64,000 nucleotides of DNA from NCBI GenBank assembly GCA_000433875.1, contig HF993347.1, positions 22,450 through 86,449 on the forward strand. Reading direction: 5' to 3'. Source of the stretch: Firmicutes bacterium CAG:884. GTDB lineage: Bacteria > Bacillota_I > Bacilli_A > RF39 > UBA660. Positions 20,437-40,761 of this stretch are shown here, in pieces. Within the stretch, counting starts at the first letter, position 1. The number at the start of each line of letters is the position of its first letter. Under the pieces are notes generated by a model. The model was not told the origin of the DNA. It made no database searches and saw nothing but the letters and a program-made list of their open reading frames with translations. A program made the position numbers and the translations under genes.

Positions 20437-21177
20437 TTAAAAGAAGGAGATTATGTAAGTAGATATTCTTATAATAATGATATTGTTTTTGTAATTGTAA
20501 AAATAGAAGACAATAACTATATTTTAAAAGGAGCGAATGAAAGATTAGTAGCAGATGCCCCAATAGAAGACTTAAAAAAAGAAGAAGGTCGTGGTGAAGA
20601 ATTTGCAGCAAGAAAACCATCACTTGAAGAGCGCGAAGACTATTTTTATATGCCAGGCAAAATATTGCACATAGATGCCGATTTAGATTATCTAAATAGA
20701 TGTTTAAAATACTATAAGGAAGCAAGTATTTGGGCAACAGGAAAATGTATTAACGAAAATGAAATAAAATTTAAAATAAAAGATCTAATAACTGAATTCA
20801 ATCCTAATATTGTTGTTATAACCGGTCATGATGCTTATAATAAGCAAAAAAACATCTACAAAAATAGCAAAAACTTTATTGAAGCCGTAAGAGAAGCAAG
20901 GAATTGTGAAAAAAGTCACGAAAAACTTATAATTATAGCAGGTGCTTGTCAATCTGACTATGAAGAACTAATAAAAGCAGGCGCTAATTTTGCATCAAGC
21001 CCTAAAAGAATAAATATTCACGCTCTTGATCCGGCAATAATTGCAACCAATATAAGTATGTCAGATGCAACAAAAGAAATAAATCTTAAAGAAATACTTG
21101 ATCACACTAAATACGGAAGTGATGGTATTGGCGGAATTATAACAAAAGGAACTATGTATACGGGGTATCCACGATGA
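20434..21177 (+). CDS. yabG: Sporulation-specific protease YabG
   Basis: 247 aa. YabG hallmarks KILHIDADLDYLNRCLKYY and NIVVITGHDAY. Followed by veg, as in the B. subtilis yabG-veg region. Confidence 0.7.
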   Translation: MLKEGDYVSRYSYNNDIVFVIVKIEDNNYILKGANERLVADAPIEDLKKEEGRGEEFAARKPSLEEREDYFYMPGKILHIDADLDYLNRCLKYYKEASIWATGKCINENEIKFKIKDLITEFNPNIVVITGHDAYNKQKNIYKNSKNFIEAVREARNCEKSHEKLIIIAGACQSDYEELIKAGANFASSPKRINIHALDPAIIATNISMSDATKEINLKEILDHTKYGSDGIGGIITKGTMYTGYPR

Positions 21178-21499: not shown

Positions 21500-21796
21500 A
21501 TGGAAATAACAGAAGTAAATGTATACCTTGCTAAAGAGGATAATCCAAAATTAAAAGCTTTTGCAGAAGTAAAAATTAATAATGGATTAAGAATTACAGG
21601 AATGCGCATTATTAATGGTAAAAATGGATTATTCGTAGCAATGCCAGATCGCAGAGAAAACAGAAGAGAAGAAGGAGAAGAAGGATATCAAAAACATCAC
21701 GATATCGTCCATCCATTGAATCAAGAAGTTAGAGATATGTTCACAAAAGCAATCTTAGATAAATACTACGAAGAAGTTGAAAAAGCAAATGAATAA
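21500..21796 (+). CDS. spoVG: Septation/sporulation regulator SpoVG
   Basis: MEITEVNVYLAKEDNPKLKAFAEVKINNGLRITGMRIINGKNGLFVAMP closely matches B. subtilis SpoVG (MEVTDVRLRR…IRVIDGNNGLFVAMP). Strong RBS GGAGGGAG. Confidence 0.9.
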   Translation: MEITEVNVYLAKEDNPKLKAFAEVKINNGLRITGMRIINGKNGLFVAMPDRRENRREEGEEGYQKHHDIVHPLNQEVRDMFTKAILDKYYEEVEKANE

Positions 21797-21845
21797 GGAC
21801 TATAAGTCCTTTTTTTTATAAAAAAATTCCTATTTCTAGGAATTA
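21797..21845. terminator. Back-to-back terminator hairpins (bidirectional): spoVG terminator and terminator of the minus-strand locus
   Basis: GGACT-ATA-AGTCC followed by T8 (+ strand). AATTCCTA-TTTC-TAGGAATT, an 8-bp stem followed on the minus strand by T7. Confidence 0.55.
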
Positions 21846-22574
21846 AAACTTATTTCTGTTTTCATATACTTTCTTTACATAAACATACATAAAGTATCCA
21901 ATAACAACTAAAACTAAAAATATAATAACTAAATATACAATAGTCATATTAACCTTTGTTCCAATTGTTTTCATATTTAAAGCATAAACATCATTTGAAT
22001 TATACTTTAATAATATTTCTTTTTCTTTAGTATCTTTATCTATATACCAAGTATAGATATTTTTATTTTTATCAACACTATCAGCATTATTTTCGATAAC
22101 TTTATAAGGAAGTTCAACATTAATTGTACTATCCTCTATAACCATTCCAAGCATTTCATATCTTTCTTCTACTTTTGAACGATTTAAACCTTTAGCATTT
22201 ATAGTAACAATATTATTATCAACATCGACACTAAAATCATCATATATATACTTAATTAATAAATTGTAATTATAAGAAGTTGGTCCATCATATTTTCTTG
22301 ATACTCTAACACCTTCATAGTTTTTAGAAACGATATCAGTCATTTTATAATTTGAATAGCCAAGCTTATTTAAATAACTATAAGCATCAGCTCTTAAATC
22401 AGCACCAAAATCAAAAGTAGTTTCACCAAGTTCATCTTTAGCAGTAGATCCGCCAGGAAAATACTGAGCTAAATCAGCACTTTCAACAAACTTATTATCA
22501 TTAGTAATTTTCAAACTATAATCAATTTTACAGCCTGTAAGAAGAAGGCATAAAATAACTATTATTATTTTCAT
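21843..22574 (-). CDS. Lipoprotein with C-terminal TM anchor (last gene of the long minus-strand locus)
   Basis: Lipobox LLTGC. C-terminal hydrophobic helix then KKVYENRNKF. 4-nt overlap with the hydrolase gene upstream. Confidence 0.5.
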   Translation of the reverse strand: MKIIIVILCLLLTGCKIDYSLKITNDNKFVESADLAQYFPGGSTAKDELGETTFDFGADLRADAYSYLNKLGYSNYKMTDIVSKNYEGVRVSRKYDGPTSYNYNLLIKYIYDDFSVDVDNNIVTINAKGLNRSKVEERYEMLGMVIEDSTINVELPYKVIENNADSVDKNKNIYTWYIDKDTKEKEILLKYNSNDVYALNMKTIGTKVNMTIVYLVIIFLVLVVIGYFMYVYVKKVYENRNKF

Positions 22575-25500
22575 TTCAAATATCCCCTCTTCTCTATTTC
22601 AGACATTCTTATAACACTTGTAAATGAATGCTTGCCATCGCTTTCATATCTTCCTGTATCAATATTTATTGTTGAATATTTAACACCAGGATCACCACCT
22701 GAGCAATGAAGTATAACTATTGTTCTATTTTGTAAATCAACTTTATAAACAATACCGATATGTGAATATTTTTGCGGTTCGGTTTCACCAGCATAAACGG
22801 TTCCTGATTTATGATATAAAACATCACCTGGATTAATTAGCCCGCTTTCAACATATTTTGCAAGTGGTACACCATGTATTGGTTTATCATTTTCTTTATC
22901 AAATTCAACATAACAAGATTCTCCATTTTCACCACAAGTTAATTTCTTTTTTTCAATATATTCTTGCATAAATTGATATGTAAAGCCTCTAAACTTATGT
23001 TCTGTAGCATAATCATTAGGGAATGTAAAGTATCCATTAATAAATGCCCATCTTATATATTCGACACAATCAAGACCTATTTTTGGAAATCTTTCATACC
23101 TAGGATTAGTTTCTTGTTGACCCCAATTAGGATTAACACCAAGTTGACGCCACATACCACCTAATTGATAAGGTAAATTTATATCTTTTGTTTCATTACT
23201 ATGAACATATAACCAATAAGCAGCAGCAAGTACACCTTGTAATGTTCCTTTTCCATTAGCAGCAACATATTGTTCAAGAGATTGATTTAAAGCACCAGCC
23301 ATTGCATTAAATGATGAAGGATCACCAGAAATGTTTCCATCTTTATCTTTAATCGCACCAATTGTATTCATATTACGCCAAGAAGTAGCATTAAAATTTT
23401 CGCCATAAAAGAATTTTAATAATTCATATTGGTCAACAAAATACCAATTGTTTGCAAGATAAGATGCAACATTATATACAAGCCCTACATTTCCAGATAT
23501 AGTATAATTTGCAAAATTATCATCATACGGAATCATAACTTTGTGAGTATCATCATTATATAAATATCCAAGTTCATATGTAATAATTTTATTTCCTTTT
23601 GACTCCTTTACAGTTCCATCTTTACCAACATAAGTATATTCGGTTGGTGTAATATAACCATCAGCATCAACTAATAACTGTTCCTTAGTTGCATTGATAG
23701 CATCATATATTTCTTTACTTTCAGTATATGTATAATTATATTGTCCAGATGCATCTAATGTTTTGGTACCCCAACTAGTATTATTTAAAGCCCAAGTTCT
23801 TGCAGAAATAGCCATCGCATTTAAAAGATTTTTATTAACATTTAATCCCACATTATATTGAATTAACCCAGCAACATAAAAATCAACAGGAACTCTTATT
23901 GTTAAATGGCCTTTAACAGGAAGAGTAACTACACCAGTACAGCAATCAGTATAATTTGCTTCATATTCAGTTTGATCATCTAATAACTTTAACGGCGTTA
24001 CTAAATTAATTAAATTATATTTACTTGTTTCCTCAGGATCATAGAAATAATGTAATATTTGTTCATAATTCCAACCAAATTTATTTGCATAAACATCGGC
24101 TAAAACTTGTGACATTCCTCTATTGTGACCAGTAAAGTTTGAATAATCTTCTTCAGGATTATCTGTGTGACCGATATCAACACGACCTTCCTTAATTTCA
24201 CTAGGCGCAACTGGAATTGTCCTAAATGTATTATTTGCTTTTTCGTGCGGTAATATATTAACACTTATTGTTGAACAATCCCCAACAATACTCTTTACAT
24301 TTGCTTGATTTCTAAATTGTCTTGGAACAGATGTTGAACCACAATAATAAGGCGTTCCACCATTTTTACACTTACTTGCGGCCTTTTGCGCTTGTGCGGA
24401 TCCATCCTTACTAGGATTAGCAGCCATTCCAACTTTTTTATCATCATCCCCGTGACTTGCAGAACGACAAGTAACTTTACTACGACTTACATCATAATAA
24501 GGTACAAATTTGTCTACTTGTATATGAGTAACAGGATCATAAACTATTGGATTAGTACATATATATACACCTTCACAAGGGAAACTTGCATATTCTGTAA
24601 AATGTAATCCATAAGAATAAGATATTAGCATACCAGCTGTTTCTCTAGCAGCAAGCATATTAATTATATCATCACGATTTTTTGTAGTATCAATCTTAAA
24701 GTGTGTTTGGAAATCTTCACTATTTGGAACAATTTCACCAGAAGTACAATATTTTGTTCTATGAACATACTCATTTCGAGCAGCTATAGCCTGAGCTTTT
24801 AAAGCTTCAAAATTAGATCCAGTTGACATTTCATGACTAACAACGCCGGCTACATAAGTTTCCAAATCCATAGTTGAATATGGACCACTATAAGCATCCT
24901 CACCATCATATACTTTAACTACACACTCATTTTTATTTGTAAAAGTATAACTAGGATATACAGAATATAGATATTCTTTTAAAGATTTAGGTTCATATGT
25001 AAGAATAGATACCCCATCACATTGCGCAAATAAAAGTGAAGGATCATATCGTTTATTTCCAGAGACTAATTGATAATGTAAGTGATAACCAGATGAACAT
25101 CCAGTTGTTCCTTCAACACCAATTTTTTGTCCTTTCGTAACCTTTTCTCCAGGTTTAACACTAATGCTTTCCATATGCATATAGTATGAATAATATGTTT
25201 TACCGCCTAATTCGTGCTTTATACGAACGTAATTACCATTACTTCTACTATCCATTTTTCCACTTGAATCAACACAAGCTCCACCATTCCATTGATTAAA
25301 AATGTTAGGAATGCCATCTACTACTACATCAACAACTCCATCATAAACAGCTATTAAAGTTCTATCGTTAGCATAAGCATCAATTGCATAATGGGAATAG
25401 CCATTTCTATTAGCAGTAAATTGACTTGAAATACTACATTTAGCATTTAAATTAAATGGTGAAGTAAAGTTTTGTTTAACTTCTTCTGGTAATTGATATT

Positions 25501-26830
25501 CTGTTTGCGTTGTTGTTAGCGAATCACCATTAGAAAAATTAATTGTATCAATAACATCGTTATAGTAATAACTTGCAAATTCATTTCGATTATTATAAAT
25601 AGCATATGCTATCTCTATATTATTTTCTCTTTTGTTTGTTGAATTACAATCAAGACATTCAATATAATTTTCTGGAATATATTCATTCAATAAATATTTA
25701 GCGAATGTTTCATAATTCATATATTTTTGTACATAGTGAACTAAATAATTACTTCCACAATTCATATTAGGATCATATTCACTTGTGTCATAATAATCAC
25801 TAAACGTACCATTTTGTCTCATTGTATCTAATCTTTTCTTTAATTGTTGAGCATACCATCTTACAGTTTGCGTGTTATCATCTCTATAACCATTAATAGG
25901 TGCTCCAGAATAATATAATGTTTCATATCTAATAATTGTAGAATCGAGCACATCATATGTTACAGCGCCGTGTTTAGTTTGACCACTTATTTGAGCATTT
26001 GACAAATAACCTTTTTTATCAGTAACACAAGTACTAATTACCTTAGAACCAACTAAATTACCAGCAAGTCCTCTCATTTCTGGATCAGGTATACCAGTAT
26101 CAATTCCTAAAGAAATATCTGCAAGTTCATAAAAACTTTTTATTTCATATACAGGTAAAGATGTATATGATCTAGAACGAGCAACACCCATATTGGACAT
26201 TGTTTTATAACCATTTATAGCACCACTTATTACATTAGCATCACTTATAAACTTATTATAATGAATTGCTGCTGCAATCATTGAAATATCAAATTCTCCT
26301 TCAGTTAAAGAGACACCATTTTCAAGTGAATAATTGTTATAATTATCAGCAATTTTCTTTAAATCAGAAAAGAATGATTCATTAGCTGTCAAAGTAGATT
26401 TATAAAATGATGATACTACGGCATTAACATGTTTTGTACCAGATGGCGAAATAAAACTTGTACTAGTTGAACCGTTTTGTGAGGTATTATCTTTAACATT
26501 ATCAGTTAAGAAGTGACCTTTCCATTTTTCATTCGTAAAAATTGTTGCAATTAGTATCACACCAAAAAGCAAAATAGAAATTAAGCCACCAATGATAAAA
26601 AATTTAATTTTTTTTAACTTTCCTAAAAAGCCTAAACCAATTAAACCTTTTTTATTAGTAGTCGCTCCGCCTTCTGCAATACCAGAAGCACCTTCTTCAA
26701 TCTCTTCATACTTATTAACCATATCCGGATTATTTACAAAAGCTTGTTCATCATTTGTTAAATTTCCAGTAGTTTGTATTCTATTTTGATTATTTCGTAA
26801 TCTATTTATAGCATCATTATCTCGATTCAT
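22571..26830 (-). CDS. Giant (1419 aa) membrane-anchored peptidoglycan hydrolase: SpoIID/LytB-like lytic transglycosylase + M23 endopeptidase + NlpC/P60 domains
   Basis: N-terminal TM (FFIIGGLISILLFGVILIATIF). SpoIID-like segment METYVAGVVSHEMSTGSNFEALKAQAIAARNEY. M23 segment GNYVRIKHELGGKTYYSYYMHMESISVKPGEKVTKGQKIGVEGTTGCSSGYHLHYQL. C-terminal NlpC/P60-like segment GLDCVEYIRWAF…HIGIVYKV…ILHCSGG. Confidence 0.75.
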   Translation of the reverse strand: MNRDNDAINRLRNNQNRIQTTGNLTNDEQAFVNNPDMVNKYEEIEEGASGIAEGGATTNKKGLIGLGFLGKLKKIKFFIIGGLISILLFGVILIATIFTNEKWKGHFLTDNVKDNTSQNGSTSTSFISPSGTKHVNAVVSSFYKSTLTANESFFSDLKKIADNYNNYSLENGVSLTEGEFDISMIAAAIHYNKFISDANVISGAINGYKTMSNMGVARSRSYTSLPVYEIKSFYELADISLGIDTGIPDPEMRGLAGNLVGSKVISTCVTDKKGYLSNAQISGQTKHGAVTYDVLDSTIIRYETLYYSGAPINGYRDDNTQTVRWYAQQLKKRLDTMRQNGTFSDYYDTSEYDPNMNCGSNYLVHYVQKYMNYETFAKYLLNEYIPENYIECLDCNSTNKRENNIEIAYAIYNNRNEFASYYYNDVIDTINFSNGDSLTTTQTEYQLPEEVKQNFTSPFNLNAKCSISSQFTANRNGYSHYAIDAYANDRTLIAVYDGVVDVVVDGIPNIFNQWNGGACVDSSGKMDSRSNGNYVRIKHELGGKTYYSYYMHMESISVKPGEKVTKGQKIGVEGTTGCSSGYHLHYQLVSGNKRYDPSLLFAQCDGVSILTYEPKSLKEYLYSVYPSYTFTNKNECVVKVYDGEDAYSGPYSTMDLETYVAGVVSHEMSTGSNFEALKAQAIAARNEYVHRTKYCTSGEIVPNSEDFQTHFKIDTTKNRDDIINMLAARETAGMLISYSYGLHFTEYASFPCEGVYICTNPIVYDPVTHIQVDKFVPYYDVSRSKVTCRSASHGDDDKKVGMAANPSKDGSAQAQKAASKCKNGGTPYYCGSTSVPRQFRNQANVKSIVGDCSTISVNILPHEKANNTFRTIPVAPSEIKEGRVDIGHTDNPEEDYSNFTGHNRGMSQVLADVYANKFGWNYEQILHYFYDPEETSKYNLINLVTPLKLLDDQTEYEANYTDCCTGVVTLPVKGHLTIRVPVDFYVAGLIQYNVGLNVNKNLLNAMAISARTWALNNTSWGTKTLDASGQYNYTYTESKEIYDAINATKEQLLVDADGYITPTEYTYVGKDGTVKESKGNKIITYELGYLYNDDTHKVMIPYDDNFANYTISGNVGLVYNVASYLANNWYFVDQYELLKFFYGENFNATSWRNMNTIGAIKDKDGNISGDPSSFNAMAGALNQSLEQYVAANGKGTLQGVLAAAYWLYVHSNETKDINLPYQLGGMWRQLGVNPNWGQQETNPRYERFPKIGLDCVEYIRWAFINGYFTFPNDYATEHKFRGFTYQFMQEYIEKKKLTCGENGESCYVEFDKENDKPIHGVPLAKYVESGLINPGDVLYHKSGTVYAGETEPQKYSHIGIVYKVDLQNRTIVILHCSGGDPGVKYSTINIDTGRYESDGKHSFTSVIRMSEIEKRGYLK

Positions 26831-26902
26831 AATATACCACCTTTATACTAAATCTATTATAACATTTTTTTTAGAAAAAAAAAACACCTAAAAGAAAAAG
26901 CA

Positions 26903-28461: not shown

Positions 28462-30246
28462 CTATAGTCCTCCACCGCTACCAAACGAATCAAGTTCAGC
28501 ATCAGTTAATATAACATTAATTTGCATTCTTCTACTACCACATACAAGTAATGCTTCACCTTGGTTATATCTTTTAATGCCTTCTTTTTCATTGTCATTT
28601 AAATCAATTAAGAAACCTAAATCTTCAACTGCTTGTTTCTTAAGACCCATTACAAGATAATATGAAGCATTATCGAATATAGCTTTACCGTGCATTAATA
28701 CATCAGGTGCACAGAAATCACTCGGTTGTTGAGTAATTATAATAGTACCTGTATTATATTTACGACTTCTTCTTTGAACTTGCGCTAGGAATTCAGCACC
28801 AAGTGCATTATTACCACCTAATAATACGTGAGCTTCATCAACAGCTAAAACAGTATTTACACTCTTATCAAGTGTTAAACTCCAAGCATATTTTAATATA
28901 TTAAAGAATAAAGCATTTCTTATATTACTATCAGAATTCATTAATTCTCTTATATTAAATACTATAAAGTTACTATTAGGTTTAATTGTAGTATGTCCAT
29001 CAAAATAATATTTTAATTCCTTAACAATTGGTCTTATTTTTAATTCCAATTTTTCAAGAATATCTTTCTCGTGAGATCTATCAGGCATTGATAATATCTT
29101 ACCTCTTACTGTAGCATATACATCTCTAAATGTTGGATAATCTTCCGATGTAAACTTTGTAAAATCAGTATCAAAATCAATTCCAAATCTTCTATATGTT
29201 TCTTGTATCATTTCACTATAAAGTGTTAATACATCTTCTTCAATACTAGGATCATAATACTTAATAAATGCTTTTTGCGTTTGTAAAGATCTTGTTAAAA
29301 CAGTATAACCCAAACCTTCTTTTAATTCATCTTCGTCACTATCAAGTACTATTTCAAGTGGATTAATCATACCATATTCTCCACCCTTACCTAAATCAAT
29401 GAAATCGCCACCATATAAGTTAGTCATTTCCTCAAGTTCACCTTCAGGGTCAATAACAACAACCTGGTGACCATTTCTTATATTAGCTCTTAATAATAAC
29501 TTGGCAGCTGTAGATTTACCAGATCCAGATGTACCTAATATAATCATATTTGCATTATTTCTATTGTGTTCCTTTTTAATTTGATATAAGAATTGGTTAA
29601 ATAATACAACACCACCGGAGAAATCAACACCAAGTAATGTTGACATTCCAGGATCTTTTATACTATCAAATATAAACGGATACATTGCTGCAAGCGTTGG
29701 TGAAGGTATTGGTGTACCAATTCTATTTTCTACATCTTGTTTTGGATATATTGGAAGCATTGATTTAAATACACTTTCCTGTTCAAATCTCAATGGAACA
29801 GCTGATAGTTGCATAGCTTCTAAGAAGTTTTTAACTTGTAATTTCTTAGCAACTAGTTCATCTTGTGTATCAGCAGTAATCATTATATGCATTTGAAAAT
29901 CAAATATTGCAGATTGATTAGCAGCTAACATTGAAATAAAATATTCAAGAGATTCATAATCTTGTCTTATTCTTTCTTGTAAAGTTTTATCTCTTTCATC
30001 TTGATATCTCATTTTTAAGTCTGCAATTTCTTTATTTAACATTTTAGTAATAACACTAAATGGTAAAGGTAAATGTTTTATTGCAATTTTAATTCCTGAC
30101 ATACTTGTTAAATTAGAAAGGAATCCTGGATTGATAAACTTAGGATAAGATACAACAGTTAAAATTGTTGCATACTTATCACTAATTACAATTTCCGCAC
30201 TTTTAAATTCTAACCCCTTTGGAGCAAGTTGACTTTTTAATTCCAT
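28462..30246 (-). CDS. VirB4/TrsE/TcpF-like conjugation-type ATPase, ATPase portion
   Basis: Walker A ILGTSGSGKSTAAKLL. Walker B VLAVDEAHVLLGG (DEAH). Motif C TIIITQQPSD. 594 aa. Start ATG overlaps the stop of the upstream N-terminal-domain ORF (TAATG). Confidence 0.75.
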   Translation of the reverse strand: MELKSQLAPKGLEFKSAEIVISDKYATILTVVSYPKFINPGFLSNLTSMSGIKIAIKHLPLPFSVITKMLNKEIADLKMRYQDERDKTLQERIRQDYESLEYFISMLAANQSAIFDFQMHIMITADTQDELVAKKLQVKNFLEAMQLSAVPLRFEQESVFKSMLPIYPKQDVENRIGTPIPSPTLAAMYPFIFDSIKDPGMSTLLGVDFSGGVVLFNQFLYQIKKEHNRNNANMIILGTSGSGKSTAAKLLLRANIRNGHQVVVIDPEGELEEMTNLYGGDFIDLGKGGEYGMINPLEIVLDSDEDELKEGLGYTVLTRSLQTQKAFIKYYDPSIEEDVLTLYSEMIQETYRRFGIDFDTDFTKFTSEDYPTFRDVYATVRGKILSMPDRSHEKDILEKLELKIRPIVKELKYYFDGHTTIKPNSNFIVFNIRELMNSDSNIRNALFFNILKYAWSLTLDKSVNTVLAVDEAHVLLGGNNALGAEFLAQVQRRSRKYNTGTIIITQQPSDFCAPDVLMHGKAIFDNASYYLVMGLKKQAVEDLGFLIDLNDNEKEGIKRYNQGEALLVCGSRRMQINVILTDAELDSFGSGGGL

Positions 30247-30821
30247 TAACTCATCACCGTCCCACCTTCAGTACGCATTCCTGCATTTAGGAAATTGTCA
30301 AGAAGTATTCTTAAATCATCATTTGTAGTTTGACTTGTATTCAAACCAGCAGATGCAAACTGATTAATTAAAGTTCTTAATCTTTTTTGTAAAACATCAT
30401 TATCTTTATCTCTAAATAGTAAATAGAATTCAGTATCTACAACACCATTAGCCATAAACATATTTGCTTTATTAATATCTTCCATAATCATTTTTTTAAT
30501 TCTTTGATCTGTTGATGAATTAAATGCAATTTGTAATTGTGACAAATATACATTAATATCAACAGGTCTTCCAGCTATAATTAGCCAGAATTCATAGTTT
30601 ATAACATTATAAACATTTTTTAAATTAGAAATGACAGCATCTTGTGAAGATGAATCCAAAATAAATATATTTTTTGGTTGTATTTTTAATCCTGTAACTT
30701 TTACATTATCGTCAAGTACAATCATTCCATTTGCAATACTTTTAATTGGAACAAAACTTTCTGTATATTTACTTTGTACCTTCGGTACCGGTTTCTTCGT
30801 TAGATCCTTTAAATTCTTCAC
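30246..30821 (-). CDS. VirB4-like N-terminal domain encoded as a separate ORF (split VirB4)
   Basis: 191 aa. Occupies the position and size of the VirB4/TcpF N-terminal membrane-associated domain. 1-nt overlap (TAATG, different frame) with the ATPase ORF. Confidence 0.5.
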   Translation of the reverse strand: MKNLKDLTKKPVPKVQSKYTESFVPIKSIANGMIVLDDNVKVTGLKIQPKNIFILDSSSQDAVISNLKNVYNVINYEFWLIIAGRPVDINVYLSQLQIAFNSSTDQRIKKMIMEDINKANMFMANGVVDTEFYLLFRDKDNDVLQKRLRTLINQFASAGLNTSQTTNDDLRILLDNFLNAGMRTEGGTVMS

Positions 30822-31113
30822 TGAAACACCATCCTCTCCATATAAATCTTTCTCTACTTGTAAAGAACCTATAAATTGATAAAATTACTGTTAACACATT
30901 ATGATAATGGGCAACAGGGAAAACAAGTATTATTGCAATTGCTCCAGGAGTAACAGCAATTACTGTTGGCCCTATATCAGATAAATTAAGTGTTAATAAT
31001 AATATCAAGGTAATTGATAGTCCAATTGCCAAAATAATTAAATCAAGGCCTCTAAATAGACCAAATATAAGCATTGATTTTTTGGAATTGGCTGGTATTA
31101 AAAATCCATTCAT
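30769..31113 (-). CDS. TcpE / Tn916-Orf17 / VirB3-like small membrane protein
   Basis: 114 aa, two TM helices (MLIFGLFRGLDLIILAIGLSITLILLL…). Lies immediately upstream of the VirB4-like gene, as VirB3-type proteins do. Confidence 0.45.
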   Translation of the reverse strand: MNGFLIPANSKKSMLIFGLFRGLDLIILAIGLSITLILLLTLNLSDIGPTVIAVTPGAIAIILVFPVAHYHNVLTVILSIYRFFTSRERFIWRGWCFSEEFKGSNEETGTEGTK

Positions 31114-31130
31114 ATATTATATCTCCCTTT

Positions 31131-33548
31131 TTATTTTCCGCCACCAGATCTGTGAGCTGCAGCAGCATTTTTTTCTTGCACATGACGTTTAGCTTCATCA
31201 GAATTAGAATATGTCTTACTAACATAGTCAGCACGGTCAGAATATGTTTTGGAATCACTAGCAACAAATGATTCAAGATAATCGGATGCCTTAGTATTAA
31301 TAGAAGCAAAAGTATGTCCACTTCCCATAACATTTGCATCACCAAATATCCTGATATTAGAATTAATATCTGAAACAATGTTCTCCGCAAGTTTAGCAGA
31401 TAATTCATCATGATAATTTCCAGAAGAATCTTTCTGTACCATCCACTCAGCAGCTGCTTGACCTTCAATGAATTTTTTCTTAATATTCAATCCACGCTCC
31501 CATTCTGATAAACGGTCAGCATACGCTCTTCTTTGATCGTTTGTCATACCAGAAACATCAGCAGATTTGGCAACGTTGTATGCAGTAAGTTCTGATTTAT
31601 AATCACCTATTGAATACCCTGTATTTTTGGTTTTTCTATATCTTCCAGTTGCAGCATCATATATTTGGAATGTTGCATCACCCGTTGTTGAATCTTTCGC
31701 AAATAATGCATCACCAGTTCCTTTGGAATTATAGAAATCTTTTATGCTTTTTGATGATGCAGAACTAAAAATTACGTCTGTTCCGTTTTTTTTCATCATT
31801 TCGGCACCCGCACGCGAATATAATGCATCAGTACTGCTCTTTATTCTAGAATTTGTATCAACAATTTGTTTATCTACATCTGCTCGAGTTAGAGCACCAG
31901 TTGCCATAGCCATTCGTGCACCCGCTCTTCCAATCAAGGTAGTACCAACATTCGTACCAGCGAGTCTACCACTACGAGCATAATTTTCTTTTACGTTACC
32001 AGTGATATCATGCATTGATTTAACACCCTTCTTAGCACCAGAAACACCTGAACGTAATGTACCACCGACACCGCCTGTAACCGCTCTTCCAAGAGCTTCA
32101 TTAAAACCAGCACCATTACGACGTGCACTACTATATGCCGCAACACCAGTTCCTAAGCCTGTTACTAAGCCAGCAGCTCCACCAACAGCCATACTTGCTA
32201 ATCTACTATCACCAATACGTTTAAGTGGATTTAAATTAAATTGGCCTTTAACATCAATACCAAATGCTTTACCAATTAAATCAGGAATTTGTTTAACAAA
32301 TAACAAAATACCTAATATCATAAATACTTGAAACCATACACTAGTATTTGTAGAACCAGCAACAGTATCTCCACTACCAAACAATTCATTAATTAGAAAA
32401 ACACCAAAATATACAGTTGCAACTCTAATAAAGAGATCAGTATAAGTTTTTAGTGATTCTTTAATCCACCAATTAAGTGGTTTTTTATCACTCTTTGTAT
32501 CACCAGGTTCAATATTTAATATAATTGGAATCGGTGCGATTATTTGCAAGAAACATAGTTTAACATTACGAATAGCAACATCAAAGCTAAAGCTTAAAAA
32601 TAGCAAAGCTAGAAAACCTCCAGCAATCGTTGAAACAATTGCAGTATAGTTAATTACATAAGAATTACCAACTATAGCTCTAATAATATGCGAACTTGAC
32701 AATAATCCAATATTTTGTCTTTGAGAAGCAATATAGAACATTGTACCTATTTCAACATCGCCAACACCTCGTACACTGCCAAGTGAATTATCGTTTCCAT
32801 TAAGTGCATTAACGCATTGAGCAATTTTATTACTTTCTATGATTATTGCATCGGTAGAAGATTTTCCACCTGGATCTACTGTAACTTCCTTATCACCAGA
32901 AGGAACAACATATTTTGTATAATATGTAAGCAAATTCGAACAAGGTGTTAAGGATTCTATTGCTGTATTAGGTCTAAAGAAAGCACTAAAAGTTAAAAAC
33001 CCAATAGATTGTCCATAAGAAGCAGCATTAAACGAATCATTATCATCATTTTTATTTGTTGTATTCATTCCCATAATAAGATTCCCAATAACGTTACTCT
33101 CCATAATATATGATTGTAAAGCAAATGCTCTATTAAATATCCAAGGAACTGACACAATTAAAGCTAGTGATATAGCAAGATTAGAAATCAACTTGCTTGT
33201 TCCCTTCTCCATTCCTTCTGGATTGATTATATATTTAACAAAAGAAAATGCTAATCTAAACAACATAAATATTCCAAGTAAAGTATATAATCTTTGCGAA
33301 GCACTTGCTAAATTTAAACTACTAAGTAACGAACTAGAAGAAAGTTCATAAAATATGCTATAAGCAAAAGCAGCAATAGAATAAACTTGGGTATCAATCC
33401 AAATAAGAAGTGATCTTAAAAGTCCATATAGTGTCTCATTAATATCATCAACCAAAAGACTACCAAGAGTATATGCCGCAACACCAACAGCACCTAGAAT
33501 TAATAATGCCGAAAAGCCTAAACCTTTATTATTAAATTTTTTTCTCAT
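31131..33548 (-). CDS. VirB6/TcpH/TrbL-like polytopic membrane protein with Gly/Ala-rich C-terminal domain
   Basis: 805 aa. At least 8 TM helices in the N-terminal ~470 aa. The hydrophilic C-terminal half is rich in G/A/S/T. Size and topology as for TcpH/Tn916 Orf15. Confidence 0.55.
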   Translation of the reverse strand: MRKKFNNKGLGFSALLILGAVGVAAYTLGSLLVDDINETLYGLLRSLLIWIDTQVYSIAAFAYSIFYELSSSSLLSSLNLASASQRLYTLLGIFMLFRLAFSFVKYIINPEGMEKGTSKLISNLAISLALIVSVPWIFNRAFALQSYIMESNVIGNLIMGMNTTNKNDDNDSFNAASYGQSIGFLTFSAFFRPNTAIESLTPCSNLLTYYTKYVVPSGDKEVTVDPGGKSSTDAIIIESNKIAQCVNALNGNDNSLGSVRGVGDVEIGTMFYIASQRQNIGLLSSSHIIRAIVGNSYVINYTAIVSTIAGGFLALLFLSFSFDVAIRNVKLCFLQIIAPIPIILNIEPGDTKSDKKPLNWWIKESLKTYTDLFIRVATVYFGVFLINELFGSGDTVAGSTNTSVWFQVFMILGILLFVKQIPDLIGKAFGIDVKGQFNLNPLKRIGDSRLASMAVGGAAGLVTGLGTGVAAYSSARRNGAGFNEALGRAVTGGVGGTLRSGVSGAKKGVKSMHDITGNVKENYARSGRLAGTNVGTTLIGRAGARMAMATGALTRADVDKQIVDTNSRIKSSTDALYSRAGAEMMKKNGTDVIFSSASSKSIKDFYNSKGTGDALFAKDSTTGDATFQIYDAATGRYRKTKNTGYSIGDYKSELTAYNVAKSADVSGMTNDQRRAYADRLSEWERGLNIKKKFIEGQAAAEWMVQKDSSGNYHDELSAKLAENIVSDINSNIRIFGDANVMGSGHTFASINTKASDYLESFVASDSKTYSDRADYVSKTYSNSDEAKRHVQEKNAAAAHRSGGGK

Positions 33549-33557
33549 AAATCCACC

Positions 33558-34265
33558 TTAACTTTCAAGACATTTTAATGCATCAACATTAACATATCTA
33601 TTTATCAAACTAATAACAATATTAACAATAGCAGGCGCTAATAAAACAACCACTAAAGCAATAATTCTTGTCTTTATATTTTTAAAAGCCTTCTTTTGAT
33701 CTAAGTCTTTTGAAATAACAACTTTGTATAAATCAATAACACAAAGAATAATAGTTAAACTAACACATCCTATTTGAACATACATCAAAAACTCATTCAT
33801 TACCTTAACAAAATCTTTGCTAATAAGATCACAATTATCAACAACAGTTAAATCTTTCCTATCCTTTATCTTATTTCCCGTAACAAACACATTTTTTTTA
33901 ATTTCTAATTCATTTTCTAATTTTAAACTAATCATTTTATTATCTTTTGCAAGATCTTCACCATATTTTATGGCATCATATAAATCTTCAGCATAGTTAG
34001 CGCAGTAATCATTAATTTCTACACCATCTTCGGTAGTTAATTCTTTAACAGTTCCATAACCACCACTCATTTTTTCTAAATCTCCTTGAGCATATTTTAT
34101 AATTGCAAGTCTCTCTGCAGAATTACACGCTCCAATAAACTTATCATAAGACTCATTAAGTTTAACAAATGCTTTGTTATATTGCTCAAGATAATTTTTT
34201 TTATCATCACCATAAACATTAAATATAAGTAAAAACGTAATTAAAAACAAAATAATTTTTTTCAT
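33558..34265 (-). CDS. Secreted protein of the 8-member paralog family with C-terminal VirB2/TrbC-like two-helix module (member 8, 235 aa)
   Basis: Signal peptide. Conserved C…ER.AI and DNCDLIS stalk. C-terminal VQIGCVSLTIILCVIDLYKVVISKDLDQKKAFKNIKTRIIALVVVLLAPAIVNIVISLINRY…C. Confidence 0.5.
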   Translation of the reverse strand: MKKIILFLITFLLIFNVYGDDKKNYLEQYNKAFVKLNESYDKFIGACNSAERLAIIKYAQGDLEKMSGGYGTVKELTTEDGVEINDYCANYAEDLYDAIKYGEDLAKDNKMISLKLENELEIKKNVFVTGNKIKDRKDLTVVDNCDLISKDFVKVMNEFLMYVQIGCVSLTIILCVIDLYKVVISKDLDQKKAFKNIKTRIIALVVVLLAPAIVNIVISLINRYVNVDALKCLES

Positions 34266-34412
34266 AATTCACCTATAGGAAATCTATCTTAATAAATTAT
34301 AACATAAAGTATTAAAAAAAACTAGATATTTTCTAAAATTTAAATCAAAATATTAAGCAAAAATATACGTTACCATAATACCACTTAAAAATCAATAAAA
34401 AAGAATAAAAAA

Positions 34413-35876
34413 TTATTCTTTTAAATCACTAATAACACATTTAGATGTATCAACTGGAAAATATTTATTAAGTAAATCTAAAAATATCATAACCAATGCT
34501 GGTAACAATAAAACAATTGCTAAATATATCAATCTTTTAGAAATCAATGAAGGCATTTTCTTTCTAGCACTATCATCACCAGCAATTACAGCCTTGTAAA
34601 TTTCAACAATAGATAAGAAAATAACAATAACAACTGCTCCAATACGTAAAGCATTTAATACTTCCTTTATAATATTCCTTAATCCGCTAGAAATAAGTTG
34701 ACATCCATCCTCAACAATCTTTACATTAGCATTTGCATTAGTAAGTAAACCATATCCGATTAGATACTTAGACTGAACATACATATATGATAATTTTGAA
34801 GTAATTTCATCATGATTTGAATAACTATAAAGAATACGATTTAAATTATTTATATTAGAATATAACTCATCCGCTGCTTCTCCGCATTCTGAAGAAAAAG
34901 AATTAAAAAGCATTTTTATTTCATTATCTAAGTATGATGATACATTACCTTTATCATAAAATGTTGCTGTAGTACCACTAGCATATGACTGAATAGCACG
35001 CATTTCGTTTTCGGTACAAACTTTTTTAAATTTTTCTATAGATTTATCTATTGTATTACCTTTTTCATTTAAACAAGACATAATATCCGAAAGCTTATTT
35101 TTTCCATCATTTAAAGGACATATATTTTGTGCATCCGCTACACCATCGACTTCACCAATTATAAAATCCTTTTCATACCTTGATAACATTTGTCTCAAAG
35201 TAACTCCATCAGGTAAACCAGATTTTGATTTCTTATAGTCTTTGCATACCTGTGTAATACCCGATGAAGAAATAATTCTGTTATTATAATAAACTGAACC
35301 ACTAGAATAATTAGGATTAAAATAAAAATAGCCAAGCAATGGAACATATTCAGGACGTTCTGCATAAGTACCATGATAATTTTTCATTCTATTTTCAGTT
35401 ATATAATTACATACGTCTTCAAATGTATATTTTCTTTCAGAACCAGTATAACTTTTGGCATTTATTAAATCATCATTGCAACCTTCACAATATAAAGTAT
35501 TTGAAAGTGCAAAGAACTCATTATAAACGTCAAAAGGCATTACTGTATATTTATTTAATCCAATGGAAACAAGCACAGGACATGCCCCGGTTTGGTTTGT
35601 CGACCCAAACGAGAAAAACTTAGCAAACAATTTATTTTCCGTTGCCCTTTCAACGGTTAAGCCCGATCCATCAGAACTGCCATTTGTATATACCAATTGT
35701 ATTGATTTTTTTCCACCACCAAACGAAAAAGCACTGATCCAATTTATTGAATTATAATTAACTTCATAATATAAAGTATAGTCATTACCATTTATATTAT
35801 ATTTACAAAAATCTGCTTTTACATTTAATATAAAAAGGCAACAAATAATAAATAAACAATTTAATAATTTTTTCAT
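34413..35876 (-). CDS. Paralog family member 7 (487 aa): variable ectodomain + conserved two-helix C-terminal module
   Basis: Signal peptide. C-terminal LRIGAVVIVIFLSIVEIYKAVIAGDDSARKKMPSLISKRLIYLAIVLLLPALVMIFLDLLNKY…C. Confidence 0.5.
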   Translation of the reverse strand: MKKLLNCLFIICCLFILNVKADFCKYNINGNDYTLYYEVNYNSINWISAFSFGGGKKSIQLVYTNGSSDGSGLTVERATENKLFAKFFSFGSTNQTGACPVLVSIGLNKYTVMPFDVYNEFFALSNTLYCEGCNDDLINAKSYTGSERKYTFEDVCNYITENRMKNYHGTYAERPEYVPLLGYFYFNPNYSSGSVYYNNRIISSSGITQVCKDYKKSKSGLPDGVTLRQMLSRYEKDFIIGEVDGVADAQNICPLNDGKNKLSDIMSCLNEKGNTIDKSIEKFKKVCTENEMRAIQSYASGTTATFYDKGNVSSYLDNEIKMLFNSFSSECGEAADELYSNINNLNRILYSYSNHDEITSKLSYMYVQSKYLIGYGLLTNANANVKIVEDGCQLISSGLRNIIKEVLNALRIGAVVIVIFLSIVEIYKAVIAGDDSARKKMPSLISKRLIYLAIVLLLPALVMIFLDLLNKYFPVDTSKCVISDLKE

Positions 35877-35877
35877 A

Positions 35878-36984
35878 CTAACCTCCAGTTATTGCCTTAA
35901 CACATTCACCATTTACCTTTACATAAGAACCAGCTCTATATTTATCAACTAAATCCAAAACAATATTCACAAGTACCGGTAACAATAAGGTAAGCACTAA
36001 AATAATCATACGCTTTACTGAATTAGAAATCCATTTTTTAGTTGCGGAATCATCTTTGGCAGTTAAACACTTCATTCCATCCAAATAAATAAAGAATATA
36101 ACTAAAATAATACAAATTAATCTAAAGGTATCAAAAAAACTATTTAGTATTTTTCTGATATCTTCACTTATAGCATCACAAGCATTATCATCAGTTTTAA
36201 TATCAATCCAAGGAGTACTTAAGGCCGAATATCCAGCATAATAACTATTATATAATGATAAATAATTTAAAGTATTAACGTTTCCACCACCATCAACATA
36301 ATCAGATAAAATGTGATTTAACGCAACAACAGAATTATATAAATCAGATGTTATCTTAGCACATTCATCACTCAATTTTATATTTTTATCATTATATGTA
36401 AATACATTATCCCCATAAAAAGTATTGATTGAATTAAAATCATTATGACTAAAATAATTATAAATTGCAGACCTTTCAATTGAAGTACAAGAACCTTTTG
36501 CATACGCTTCAATATTTACATTCATCTGTTTCCTTGTTTCATCAGAAACACCACTTGATGCTGTTAGTTCCTTTGTATCATAATGTGTATATTTAATTGA
36601 ATTAATTTTATCAGAATTAATTATACCATCAACTTGACCAATTATTTCATTATTTTCATTTCGCACAATTTCATCAGCAGCAATCAAAAGATTAAATTGT
36701 TCTCTATCTCTTGCAATAAAATAATGTTTATTATTATCGCCAAAAAAAGTAATTTGGCCAAGAGTTGGACACACTAATTCACTAGGACTTGCTATTCTAT
36801 TATGATAATAAGCATATTTCTCACCATCTACAACAAAATTAGTAATAACTCCTTCTCCGGCTGAAGATATATAATAACCAAAATTTATTGTTTTTTCACC
36901 AGATTTATATGAACATGATATAGCATCATTACTAGCATATATATTTGGAATAAATAAACATAAAATTAATAATAAGATTTTCAT
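35878..36984 (-). CDS. Paralog family member 6 (368 aa)
   Basis: Signal peptide. C-terminal FRLICIILVIFFIYLDGMKCLTAKDDSATKKWISNSVKRMIILVLTLLLPVLVNIVLDLVDKY…C. Confidence 0.5.
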   Translation of the reverse strand: MKILLLILCLFIPNIYASNDAISCSYKSGEKTINFGYYISSAGEGVITNFVVDGEKYAYYHNRIASPSELVCPTLGQITFFGDNNKHYFIARDREQFNLLIAADEIVRNENNEIIGQVDGIINSDKINSIKYTHYDTKELTASSGVSDETRKQMNVNIEAYAKGSCTSIERSAIYNYFSHNDFNSINTFYGDNVFTYNDKNIKLSDECAKITSDLYNSVVALNHILSDYVDGGGNVNTLNYLSLYNSYYAGYSALSTPWIDIKTDDNACDAISEDIRKILNSFFDTFRLICIILVIFFIYLDGMKCLTAKDDSATKKWISNSVKRMIILVLTLLLPVLVNIVLDLVDKYRAGSYVKVNGECVKAITGG

Positions 36985-36991
36985 TTCACAC

Positions 36992-38275
36992 CTACCTTAT
37001 TCCACATATAGGATCATCTACACCAATTGTATTTATAAACTTAAAGATAATTTCTATAAAAACTGGAGTTAATATAAGTAAGACAATAGCGATTATTCTT
37101 TTTGATAAAACTTTAAACTGTTTCTTACCATCAACATCTTTACTAACGATAATCTTAAAAACATCAACAACACCTAATAAAGTTCCCAAAATAATTCCTG
37201 CATATTTCATTACATTAAATGCATATTGGAAAATAGCAGTCGTTTTTTCATCAAAAATTCCGCAATGAACAACTTCTTTAGGTTCTTGTTGCATTGTTTC
37301 ACCTGTTAAAAAAGCAACACCCTTTTGATAAAAAGTTTCATAATATAAATATGCCATTGAATAACTGCGACTACCATTAGCAATTACAGTACCAGTTTTT
37401 CCCATATAGCTAGAACCCTTAATAACATTAATAAATAAATTACCATCTCCAAGTCCTTCACCATATAAAATATTATAACAAGAACTTGATAAAGTAACAT
37501 TTTCAAATATCTTATCAAGATCAAATAAAGATGCATCTCTAGCTATTCTTATTTTATTTAAATCTTCCTCAGTACATATCTTAACATCTTCAGCTTCTTC
37601 TAACAACTTTCTTAAAGCATCAGCATATCCAACGTATGAATTGGTTGGCATATCTTTAACATCCACGTCATCAAATATCCCAATATCATCATAAGACATA
37701 TCATCACTTGAATTATATTCCTGTTTAGTTTGCACTTGTACATCCGGCTCTTTACCATAATTAGAAGGTGCATAATATTTTTTTAAACTATCTATAAATT
37801 CTTTTTTTTGTTCATCACTTATATTTGTTTCATCACCAATATAATATAGAAAAGCAGCTTTTCCATCAACAGCATAAGCATTATTATATTTAATAAATTT
37901 AGGTAAATAATTCAACATGAAATCAGGATTTTCTATTTCATCTTTTGAAAATGAACTTCTATTTTCATTACAAACATATAATTTTGAATTCGCACAAAAT
38001 CCACCACCTATAGATATTATTCTATATGGTGCATCACCATTATAGGAAAAGTTTTCCTTATTGCTATTAGTCAAAACAATAGTATTATCATCCATTGTAT
38101 ATTTTGAATCACTGCTATCCGGTTGAGTTGGATCTTCAAAATATTTTACTGTAGCCGTATACGTTTCACCATCTATAACAACACGATAAGTATACTCTTT
38201 AAAATTATAATCTCTTGCAGCATAAACATTAAAACAAGTAAATAAAGCAATTATTAAAAATATAATTTTTTTCAA
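36992..38275 (-). CDS. Paralog family member 5 (427 aa)
   Basis: Signal peptide. C-terminal KYAGIILGTLLGVVDVFKIIVSKDVDGKKQFKVLSKRIIAIVLLILTPVFIEIIFKFIN…C. Confidence 0.5.
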   Translation of the reverse strand: MKKIIFLIIALFTCFNVYAARDYNFKEYTYRVVIDGETYTATVKYFEDPTQPDSSDSKYTMDDNTIVLTNSNKENFSYNGDAPYRIISIGGGFCANSKLYVCNENRSSFSKDEIENPDFMLNYLPKFIKYNNAYAVDGKAAFLYYIGDETNISDEQKKEFIDSLKKYYAPSNYGKEPDVQVQTKQEYNSSDDMSYDDIGIFDDVDVKDMPTNSYVGYADALRKLLEEAEDVKICTEEDLNKIRIARDASLFDLDKIFENVTLSSSCYNILYGEGLGDGNLFINVIKGSSYMGKTGTVIANGSRSYSMAYLYYETFYQKGVAFLTGETMQQEPKEVVHCGIFDEKTTAIFQYAFNVMKYAGIILGTLLGVVDVFKIIVSKDVDGKKQFKVLSKRIIAIVLLILTPVFIEIIFKFINTIGVDDPICGIR

Positions 38276-38279
38276 AATA

Positions 38280-39674: not shown

Positions 39675-39679
39675 AAAAT

Positions 39680-40183
39680 CTACCCAACTGACTCATTATT
39701 CTTAGTATTAGCGCCCGTCATAATACAGCAAATACCTTGTTCAGAACTGTCATAACCAAAAAATGTTTTTACACAACTTAAAATGTTTGCTTTACCACTT
39801 TTTCCAGGTAATAAGCTTACAACAAACTGAACCAAAAAGAATACAAAGAATACTGCTATACCATAAATAACCCTTTTAGCAAACATATTCCAGCCTTTTT
39901 TTATATCTTCTTCTTTTTGACCAGCAACTGCTTTTAATAAATCAATCATACCCATTATTATAAGTACAACTGGTACTCCTATTTTTAATAAGTTAAATGC
40001 ATCATTGATCATATCAGCAAGACCAGAAGGAATACCACATTTAGTTGGAATACCACCTTCTCTATTACATTGCTCAACTGTTAAATCACTTCTAGATCCT
40101 TCACCACAAACATCATCAGCATAAACAGGAGTTGAAACACATAAAACAAGCAATGTTAAAAAAATTATAAAACCTTTCTTCAT
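39680..40183 (-). CDS. Small VirB2/TrbC-like pilin candidate (member 3, 167 aa)
   Basis: Signal peptide (…STPVYA). Short Cys-containing N-terminal region. LLKIGVPVVLIIMGMIDLLKAVAGQKEEDIKKGWNMFAKRVIYGIAVFFVFFLVQFVVSLL then a Cys-containing tail. Confidence 0.5.
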   Translation of the reverse strand: MKKGFIIFLTLLVLCVSTPVYADDVCGEGSRSDLTVEQCNREGGIPTKCGIPSGLADMINDAFNLLKIGVPVVLIIMGMIDLLKAVAGQKEEDIKKGWNMFAKRVIYGIAVFFVFFLVQFVVSLLPGKSGKANILSCVKTFFGYDSSEQGICCIMTGANTKNNESVG

Positions 40184-40194
40184 ATAAAAGCCTC

Positions 40195-40677: not shown

Positions 40678-40761
40678 ACAAATACCTCAATTTTCTATAA
40701 CAATTATATCATTATAAAAATAAAACTGCAATAAGTACAATAAAAAAGGATGAAAATATTT

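Follow-up and report, generated by a model that had tools for sequence, protein, structure and literature searches.

We analysed a stretch of 64,000 nucleotides (nt) from Firmicutes bacterium CAG:884 (contig HF993347.1, positions 22,450 to 86,449), called the window in the following, around one large gene on its minus strand. A first-pass annotation, made from the letters alone, had described this gene as encoding a three-enzyme cell-wall hydrolase of 1419 amino acids (aa) at the end of a secretion locus. The open reading frame (ORF) exists as described (22571..26830, minus strand, ATG start), and a chance open frame was ruled out because 18 full-length homologues exist (48-100% identity; all metagenomic, none named) with a mean column identity of 63% in their alignment. 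The gene lies near the end of the locus rather than at its very end: the gene for a 243-aa protein (p243; 21843-22574) still follows, its start overlapping the hydrolase stop by 4 nt, and its translation is predicted to be coupled to that of the hydrolase. The start signals and the regions of the encoded protein are the following, in the direction of reading:

26856..26864, minus strand: possible extended -10 promoter element TGTTATAAT, 5' of the hydrolase gene (consensus match by eye only)
26837..26844, minus strand: Shine-Dalgarno sequence AAAGGTGG, 7 nt 5' of the hydrolase ATG, rated good
26603..26830, minus strand: N-terminal conserved segment, predicted to be cytoplasmic, residues 1-76; precedes the sole transmembrane (TM) helix; A7, I8, N14-R17 and Q19 invariant in the 18 homologues
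26534..26602, minus strand: single TM anchor, residues 77-99; hydropathy peak 2.87 (19-residue window), the sole such segment in the protein
25421..26524, minus strand: N-domain of unknown fold, residues 103-470; invariant residues include Cys268, Cys358 and the pair Cys392-x-x-Cys395
25010..25420, minus strand: peptidase M23 domain (LytM-type), residues 471-607, with an insert of ~30 residues; motif residues H480-x3-D484, H552 and H583-x-H585
23999..24958, minus strand: SpoIID domain 1, residues 625-944; E667, C-terminal motif GHNRGMSQ (901-908), Cys-rich insert at ~761-895
23315..23998, minus strand: SpoIID domain 2, degenerate, residues 945-1172; the catalytic Glu is replaced by Asn993 and GH..GMSQ by GNVGLVYN
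22571..23314, minus strand: NlpC/P60-CHAP papain-like domain, residues 1173-1419 plus stop; C1255, H1357, H1375

The description as a three-enzyme hydrolase held in so far as three domains carry invariant catalytic residues, but it had to be refined to four hydrolase-type domains, one of which is probably dead. An alignment of the catalytic residues, proposed with the first-pass annotation as a check, found them intact in the M23 domain (H480, D484, H552, H583, H585), in SpoIID domain 1 (E667) and in the papain-like domain (C1255 with the putative partners H1357 and H1375), and all of them are invariant across the 18 homologues, whose overall identity is only 48-77%.

The M23 metallopeptidase with its HLHYQL motif was borne out by Pfam Peptidase_M23 (PF01551), which scores 60.4 bits on the whole protein and up to 65 bits in a segment scan (cut-off 28.7), and by the presence of HLHYQL at residues 583-588. 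Among the PDB sequences the region matches ShyA (1e-14), LytM and lysostaphin (E range 1e-14 to 1e-9), and also SpoIIQ (3uz0_B). The alignment to ShyA puts YMHM (H552) on YLHL and HLHY (H583, H585) on HLHY; the HxxxD motif was assigned to H480-YAI-D484 by motif and invariance, the insert of ~30 residues breaking the profile alignment there.

The glycan-cleaving part had been called SpoIID/LytB-like, which agrees with both Pfam SpoIID (PF08486; 76.3 bits on the whole protein, cut-off 23) and NCBIfam TIGR02669 SpoIID_LytB (95.7 bits, cut-off 83.3), but it consists of two copies, of which the second, degenerate one had been overlooked. A segment-wise Pfam scan recovered them with 52 bits (625-944) and 33 bits (945-1172), both over the cut-off. 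In domain 1, where AGVVSHEMSTGSNFEALKAQAIAARNEY is present at residues 661-688, E667 aligns to E101 of Clostridioides difficile SpoIID 5txu/5i1t (YVAGVVSHEMS on YLCGVLAGEMS, with the position counted along chain 5txu) and GHNRGMSQ aligns to GHGVGMSQ of the same protein; E101 is the experimentally proven catalytic residue (PMC6221140). The catalytic Glu (C. difficile E101, Bacillus subtilis E88) is thus present in domain 1 and absent from domain 2, and domain 1 is predicted to be an active lytic transglycosylase. It is interrupted by a Cys-rich insert of ~135 residues (761-895) that contains several invariant Cys and is nevertheless the least conserved stretch of the extracellular region (45% mean pairwise identity). 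In domain 2, a profile alignment puts N993 on the Glu of VVASEM in B. anthracis SpoIID 4rwr, and a direct comparison of the two domains (hhalign; probability 82%, E 1e-5) puts E667 opposite N993. Because N993 in the Glu column is invariant in the homologues and GNVGLVYN replaces GH..GMSQ, domain 2 is probably inactive, a conserved pseudo-enzyme copy. The AlphaFold2 (AF2) models of the SpoIID regions were poor.

For the C-terminal domain, which had been assigned to NlpC/P60, the result was less specific. Residues 1170-1419 gave no Pfam NLPC_P60 match even at E<=10, and the C-terminal 250 residues showed sub-threshold matches only (Amidase_6, C92 and CHAP; E 0.04-0.06). The homologous C-terminal domains were more informative: 11 of 16 match NLPC_P60 (best 3.7e-7) and 12 of 16 match CHAP (best 3.6e-7), while among the relatives P0014 has PF00877, P0016 has PF05257 and P0020 reaches 24.9 bits on NLPC_P60 (cut-off 23). 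The papain-like superfamily therefore stands, via the homologues, and from these profile comparisons the domain appears placeable in the NlpC/P60-CHAP superfamily only, not in NlpC/P60 as against CHAP. A papain-like fold was found for the domain, and its PYQLGG...GLDC (C1255) aligns to the catalytic-Cys motif PYSWGG...GFDC of RipA/RipB; H1357 and H1375 are the putative triad partners, judged by their spacing.

The large extra regions of unknown function that had been reported as well are real and correspond to the N-domain (103-470) and the Cys-rich insert (761-895). Residues 103-453 have no Pfam match and a PDB profile search found no sequence relative of the N-domain; its AF2 model (16 sequences) was poor (predicted local distance difference test score, pLDDT, 52) and gave nothing better than E 0.47 against the PDB (Foldseek). 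An exhaustive HMMER search among 1.84 billion protein representatives showed that the N-domain profile matches just 48 clusters. In the 45 distant ones the order is TM, N-domain and then usually M23 (31/45 by Pfam), followed by variable extras: CHAP (11), SpoIID (6), NLPC_P60 (3), C39-like (3), and VanY, SLT and Amidase_5 (1 each). Since the N-domain is nearly always fused to wall hydrolase domains, it is the hallmark of a small, modular family of wall hydrolases and, within the loci examined, this family is essentially confined to the type IV secretion system (T4SS) context described below. Across the wider family no catalytic-type residues are conserved in the N-domain; the conserved positions are mostly hydrophobic, together with four Cys including the CxxC pair, and for this reason a role in structure or docking seems likelier than one in catalysis.

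With the single TM helix at residues 77-99, residues 1-76 are predicted to be cytoplasmic and ~1320 residues to lie outside the membrane. The protein thereby shows a trait of the DELTA (PrgK) class of T4SS hydrolases, i.e. a cytoplasmic N-terminus, a single TM and extracellular hydrolase domains. PrgK of plasmid pCF10 has an N-terminal TM followed by a LytM (M23) domain, an SLT/muramidase glycan cleaver and a CHAP domain; it is an essential wall hydrolase and binds PrgL (PMC11323569; PMC12857230). A membrane anchor and extracellular hydrolase domains are common to all VirB1 analogues known from Gram-positives (PMC12857230).

The conserved residues should be read with PrgK in mind, as only its glycan-cleaving domain is active whereas LytM and CHAP are inactive and regulatory (PMC11323569). 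The protein could likewise be largely a non-enzymatic scaffold or adhesin, whose hydrolase-like domains bind peptidoglycan and do not cut it, and the clear degeneration of one of the two SpoIID domains and the N-domain without catalytic-type residues would fit such a role. On the other hand, all canonical catalytic residues of the M23, SpoIID-1 and papain-like domains are invariant down to 48% identity, and the degenerate copy shows that a catalytic residue does get lost where this is tolerated, so that we regard a mere scaffold as quite improbable. The explanation that we prefer, and that is developed below, is a wall-breaching enzyme of the secretion apparatus encoded next to it. The genes of that apparatus and the elements that border it are the following:

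21795..21811, no strand assigned: terminator-like hairpin, bidirectional, at the end of the locus and facing the convergent yabG
21843..22574, minus strand: p243, a 243-aa lipoprotein-like membrane protein in the position of PrgL (VirB8-like) in pCF10
28462..30821, minus strand: split VirB4 ATPase, ORFs of 191 aa and 594 aa; NF045975 349 bits (C-terminal part) and 57 bits (N-terminal part)
30769..33548, minus strand: 114-aa two-TM protein (VirB3-like position) and 805-aa polytopic membrane protein (VirB6-like position), from TM predictions and conserved order
33558-41100, minus strand: eight paralogous pilin-like genes (235, 487, 368, 427, 464, 167, 160 and 112 aa)
41118-42119, minus strand: 333-aa soluble protein, no family match, flanked by the Tad-like and the pilin-like genes; 58% identity to the corresponding L005 protein
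42122-51794, minus strand: contiguous Tad-like module with two polytopic membrane proteins, two small single-TM proteins, an ATPase and a CpaB-like protein
45079-46149, minus strand: VirB11/TadA-type ATPase, in the Tad-like module
46158-46970, minus strand: weak CpaB/RcpC-like protein, in the Tad-like module

The placement of the hydrolase in a T4SS gene set proved sound: its gene comes after VirB4 both in the window, where two small ORFs of the same strand (290 aa and 189 aa) lie in between, and in all related loci that were examined. Besides NF045975, VirB4 also matches Pfam P-loop_TraG and AAA_10. For the 114-aa/805-aa pair, NCBIfam hinted only weakly at a TM protein of pLS20 conjugation, and neither the 805-aa protein nor p243, which has its own C-terminal TM, had a PDB sequence match. 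Of the eight pilin-like proteins, six begin with a signal-peptide-like hydrophobic segment, all eight end in a two-TM pilin-like module and five match PF18895 T4SS_pilin or NF045849 (Mbov_0395 family), the NCBIfam scan covering the five large ones; the five large ones have divergent ectodomains, and those compared are 42-61% identical between lineages. The 42122-51794 region resembles a Tad-like pilus module that has been joined to the T4SS module. In the related locus L005, whose contig ends before the ATPase, homologues of the region 43372-44166, of the two single-TM proteins and of the 333-aa protein occur upstream. The 333-aa protein is a conserved component of the locus.

The remainder of the window consists of housekeeping genes: hrcA, lepA, rnfCD, a gene for a class B penicillin-binding protein (PBP), yabG, MGDG synthase, ABC and P-type transporters and a GH31 enzyme. 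The YabG (Peptidase_U57) homologue, a sporulation protease, is encoded at 20434-21177 (plus strand; E 7e-87), convergent to the locus and adjoining the class B PBP gene; the pair indicates a host that makes peptidoglycan and whose lineage may sporulate or may have done so in the past. Outside the secretion locus, two proteins with the Listeria-Bacteroides repeat (Flg_new), of 686 aa (11557-13617, minus strand) and 699 aa (60731-62830, minus strand), are likely surface proteins.

The same genes flank the hydrolase in four contigs of metagenome-assembled genomes (MAGs; labelled as uncultured Bacilli, Firmicutes and Muribaculaceae), as far as these contigs reach. The loci L001-L003 run downstream to yabG, and L001 and L003 further to the PBP and rnf genes. 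L001 (CAYLJU010000007.1) and L005 (CAYYQX010000003.1) were deposited as 'uncultured Muribaculaceae' MAGs and carry a Firmicutes-type locus with a GC content of 27-31% (L001 27%); their label is probably a binning or taxonomy error. In the distant relatives L005, L025, L026, L028 and L030 the gene order is: VirB6-like protein, a protein of ~105-110 aa, VirB4 N-part, VirB4 C-part, hydrolase, a p243 homologue of ~220-250 aa and VirD4, except that in L005 VirD4 comes directly after the hydrolase with no p243 homologue between them. The VirD4 genes are found at:

L005, 12546-14690: VirD4
L026, 4248-6497: VirD4
L028, 9700-11895: VirD4
L030, 11606-13978: VirD4

After VirD4, L026 and L030 have a rhodanese gene and then RmuC, L005 has RmuC straight away, and L005 and L030 continue with RNase R. 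The VirB6-like/VirB3-like order is kept in L001, L004, L005, L028 and L030, the hydrolase stands directly after VirB4 in L005, L028 and L030, and a p243 homologue is next after it in L001-L003, L025, L026, L028 and L030. This order persists as the VirB4 identity falls from 97% to 77%, and it is also seen among N-domain relatives with less than 30% identity. VirB4 is also split elsewhere (182-197 aa plus 594-595 aa in L001, L002, L004, L005, L028 and L030), and because every related locus keeps the split it is a stable feature and not a frameshift error. In the window itself no VirD4 coupling protein was found (tblastn), so compared with the distant relatives the window lineage appears to have lost or relocated it.

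The constancy of this gene order bears on the idea that the protein is a true sporulation or cell-division remodelling enzyme, a SpoIID/SpoIIP/SpoIIQ-like fusion that merely adjoins secretion genes. Such an origin is hinted at by the SpoIID domain with its intact catalytic Glu, by the M23 domain, which is also the fold of SpoIIQ (the 3uz0_B match), and by the presence of yabG and the class B PBP gene just downstream. However, the hydrolase gene stays with VirB4 where the neighbours differ (RmuC, RNase R and FtsA/FtsZ; L005, L026, L030), yabG is convergent with the terminator between it and the locus, the N-domain family keeps to the T4SS context, and the equivalog model for stage II sporulation protein D (TIGR02870) failed with 56.5 bits (cut-off 234.75); we consider such an enzyme very improbable here. 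The framing as a sporulation-style toolkit was not demonstrated either, in view of the same TIGR02870 score and of the fact that SpoIID/LytB domains also act outside sporulation, e.g. at the chlamydial division septum (PMC6635528). The preferred interpretation, an enzyme that opens the wall for the adjacent apparatus, accords with the constant position behind VirB4.

The question then is what kind of apparatus it serves. The system is not demonstrably conjugative: next to the missing VirD4, no relaxase was recognised in the window protein scans, no integrase turned up among the 49 ORFs scanned with Pfam (out of 65 with 100 aa or more), and ARAGORN found no tRNA gene in the window. We rejected an origin from an integrative and conjugative element (ICE) or a plasmid on two grounds: the yabG-PBP-rnf synteny at 62-88% protein identity (YabG 86-88%, PBP 70-77%, RnfC 62-65%) and the divergence within the VirB4 gene. 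Its C-terminal part (28462-30246) is 96-98% identical to the window at the protein level, yet compared with L001, L002 and L004 38-53% of the four-fold degenerate sites differ, for which reason the conservation of VirB4 reflects purifying selection in vertical descent and not recent transfer. From these comparisons the locus is chromosomal and vertically inherited. Purifying selection of this strength is unusual for a T4SS ATPase, and the adjacent housekeeping genes are less conserved. A tblastn search of the PLSDB plasmids and INPHARED phages recovered isolated M23 matches only and no full-length relative; the hydrolase family is not on the sequenced plasmids and phages of these collections.

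VirB4 is thus nearly invariant between lineages in which the hydrolase has an identity of 48-62% and the 290-aa protein (p290) one of 32-50%, and this difference in rate bears on a further alternative: the hydrolase could be an offensive, partner-directed wall-degrading weapon that the apparatus presents or delivers to a target cell (recipient, prey or host bacterium), with p243 as the immunity or inhibitor protein. Fast evolution of the extracellular parts and of the neighbouring surface proteins, next to the VirB4 conservation, is in line with this, as are the three catalytically intact lytic domains (LytM and CHAP of PrgK being degenerate or inactive; PMC11323569), the tight coupling of the gene to a small conserved downstream gene and the window without a coupling protein or recognised relaxase; Gram-negatives are reported to have bacteria-killing T4SSs whose cargo includes peptidoglycan hydrolases (PMC6536674). 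The cytoplasmic tail and TM anchor, however, resemble those of structural VirB1 analogues, every locus has the hydrolase at the fixed PrgK position behind VirB4, none of the known effector-recognition signals was identified in it, and p243 has a C-terminal TM of its own and is only 59-72% conserved between lineages, which makes a weapon of this kind rather unlikely in our judgement.

We therefore favour, with a probability of roughly two in three, the reading that the hydrolase is the wall-breaching subunit of the adjacent T4SS-like apparatus, i.e. a PrgK-class functional analogue of VirB1. This role is the most likely one because the gene order and the topology match those of prgH-I-J-K-L of pCF10. 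The cytoplasmic tail and the single TM helix would anchor the protein in the membrane beside the channel, while the N-domain most likely docks it to the machine or to p243. The M23 metallo-endopeptidase and the NlpC/P60-CHAP cysteine peptidase/amidase would cut cross-links and strip stem peptides, after which the active SpoIID domain would cleave the denuded glycan as a lytic transglycosylase, in analogy to the succession of SpoIIP and SpoIID in sporulation; SpoIID domain 2 is most likely a glycan-binding or regulatory module. We infer both the enzymatic activities and the order in which the domains would act. SpoIID acts only on glycan already stripped by a peptidase or amidase (PMC6221140), and because of this requirement its fusion to two peptidase domains makes mechanistic sense.

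Several points weigh against this reading. Since LytM and CHAP of PrgK are regulatory, intact motifs are no guarantee of activity. Neither a coupling protein nor a relaxase or integrase was recognised in the window. Fold-level support is limited to the C-terminal domain, as AF2 modelled the SpoIID regions and the N-domain poorly. Finally, the extracellular domains evolve far faster than VirB4 (50-62% versus 97% identity), and this would also fit a role that is aimed at other cells.

A wider idea, which we offer tentatively and ourselves hold to be doubtful, is that the protein is a single-chain equivalent of the sporulation DMP machine that serves a non-conjugative, vertically inherited T4SS/VirB11-Tad hybrid, a core organelle of an uncultured low-GC lineage of gut Bacilli, with an ultra-conserved split VirB4 and, in this lineage, neither coupling protein nor relaxase nor integrase. 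Its task would then be to breach the wall, either that of the producer or that of a partner cell, in the service of contact-dependent exchange, of DNA uptake or of an epibiotic/predatory interaction, and not for plasmid or ICE transfer. Independent of this idea, a chromosomal T4SS whose VirB4 is more conserved than its housekeeping neighbours suggests an important role in uncultured gut Bacilli, and because SpoIID is joined in cis to two peptidases that appear active, the 'denude, then cut' logic of engulfment can be tested within a single polypeptide that belongs to a secretion context. The rare N-domain, in turn, marks T4SS hydrolases.

Gram-positive T4SSs must cross a thick wall, and the hydrolase classes described for them so far combine an SLT, lysozyme or glucosaminidase domain with CHAP or NlpC/P60. 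Four known systems are relevant for comparison. With respect to the apparatus, the best NCBIfam matches of VirB4 and the pilin-like proteins, NF045975 (Mbov_0397) and NF045849 (Mbov_0395), with scores below the curated cut-offs, point to the T4SS of the Mycoplasma ICE (MICE). Mycoplasmas have no cell wall. The present locus further differs from MICE in that its VirB4 is split, in that no transposase, integrase or relaxase was recognised and in that it is syntenic across lineages.

With respect to the hydrolase itself, the proteins of the ALPHA and BETA classes (Orf14 of Tn916, CwlT of ICEBs1, TcpG of pCW3 and TraG of pIP501) are likewise membrane-associated and have a C-terminal NlpC/P60 or CHAP domain. 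They are two-domain proteins, however, in which a lysozyme, SLT or glucosaminidase domain is joined to a peptidase (CwlT and TcpG, for example, consist of a glycan cleaver plus a peptidase), and they lack M23, SpoIID and the N-domain. The first-pass annotation had set the present protein against this two-domain plan as the usual one, but a plan with three domains is already known in PrgK, and the new part is the SpoIID domain in the slot of the glycan cleaver.

SpoIID of Bacillus and Clostridioides, part of the DMP engulfment machinery, has the same catalytic domain family, the catalytic Glu and the GH..GMSQ motif, and is also paired with a peptidase/amidase activity that denudes the glycan first (PMC6221140). 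The hydrolase is nevertheless not an orthologue (the TIGR02870 cut-off is not reached), and it differs by its T4SS context, by the Cys-rich insert of ~135 residues and by carrying its peptidases in cis, where SpoIID proper has SpoIIP and SpoIIM as partners.

The closest counterpart is PrgK of Enterococcus faecalis pCF10. Shared with it are: the succession of a cytoplasmic part, one TM, M23/LytM, glycan cleaver and papain-like CHAP domain, and the position of the gene next to VirB4 (here with the two small ORFs intervening) and before a small membrane partner, which is PrgL in pCF10. Different are: i) the glycan cleaver, which is of the SpoIID/LytB type and duplicated with one copy probably dead, where PrgK has SLT/muramidase (Pfam scans gave no SLT or lysozyme match for the middle slot, so the LytM-SLT/muramidase-CHAP order is not reproduced to the letter); ii) the full catalytic motifs of the M23 and papain-like domains, where LytM of PrgK is degenerate and neither it nor CHAP was seen to hydrolyse peptidoglycan; iii) the extra N-domain of ~370 residues before M23, in a protein that is ~550 residues longer; iv) the M23 sequence, the PrgK LytM structure 8S0U not being among the PDB sequence matches of the hydrolase; and v) the setting, which is chromosomal and vertically inherited, PrgK being plasmid-borne. 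Literature searches on SpoIID with T4SS, conjugation or VirB4, and on RF39 with Tad and T4SS, found no relevant paper. The general plan is therefore that of PrgK and the DELTA class and already known; what is new, as far as the searched collections and literature reach, is a SpoIID-type lytic transglycosylase in the glycan-cleaver slot, with a predicted active and a probably dead copy, together with a rare N-domain and in a vertically inherited, chromosomal T4SS-like setting.

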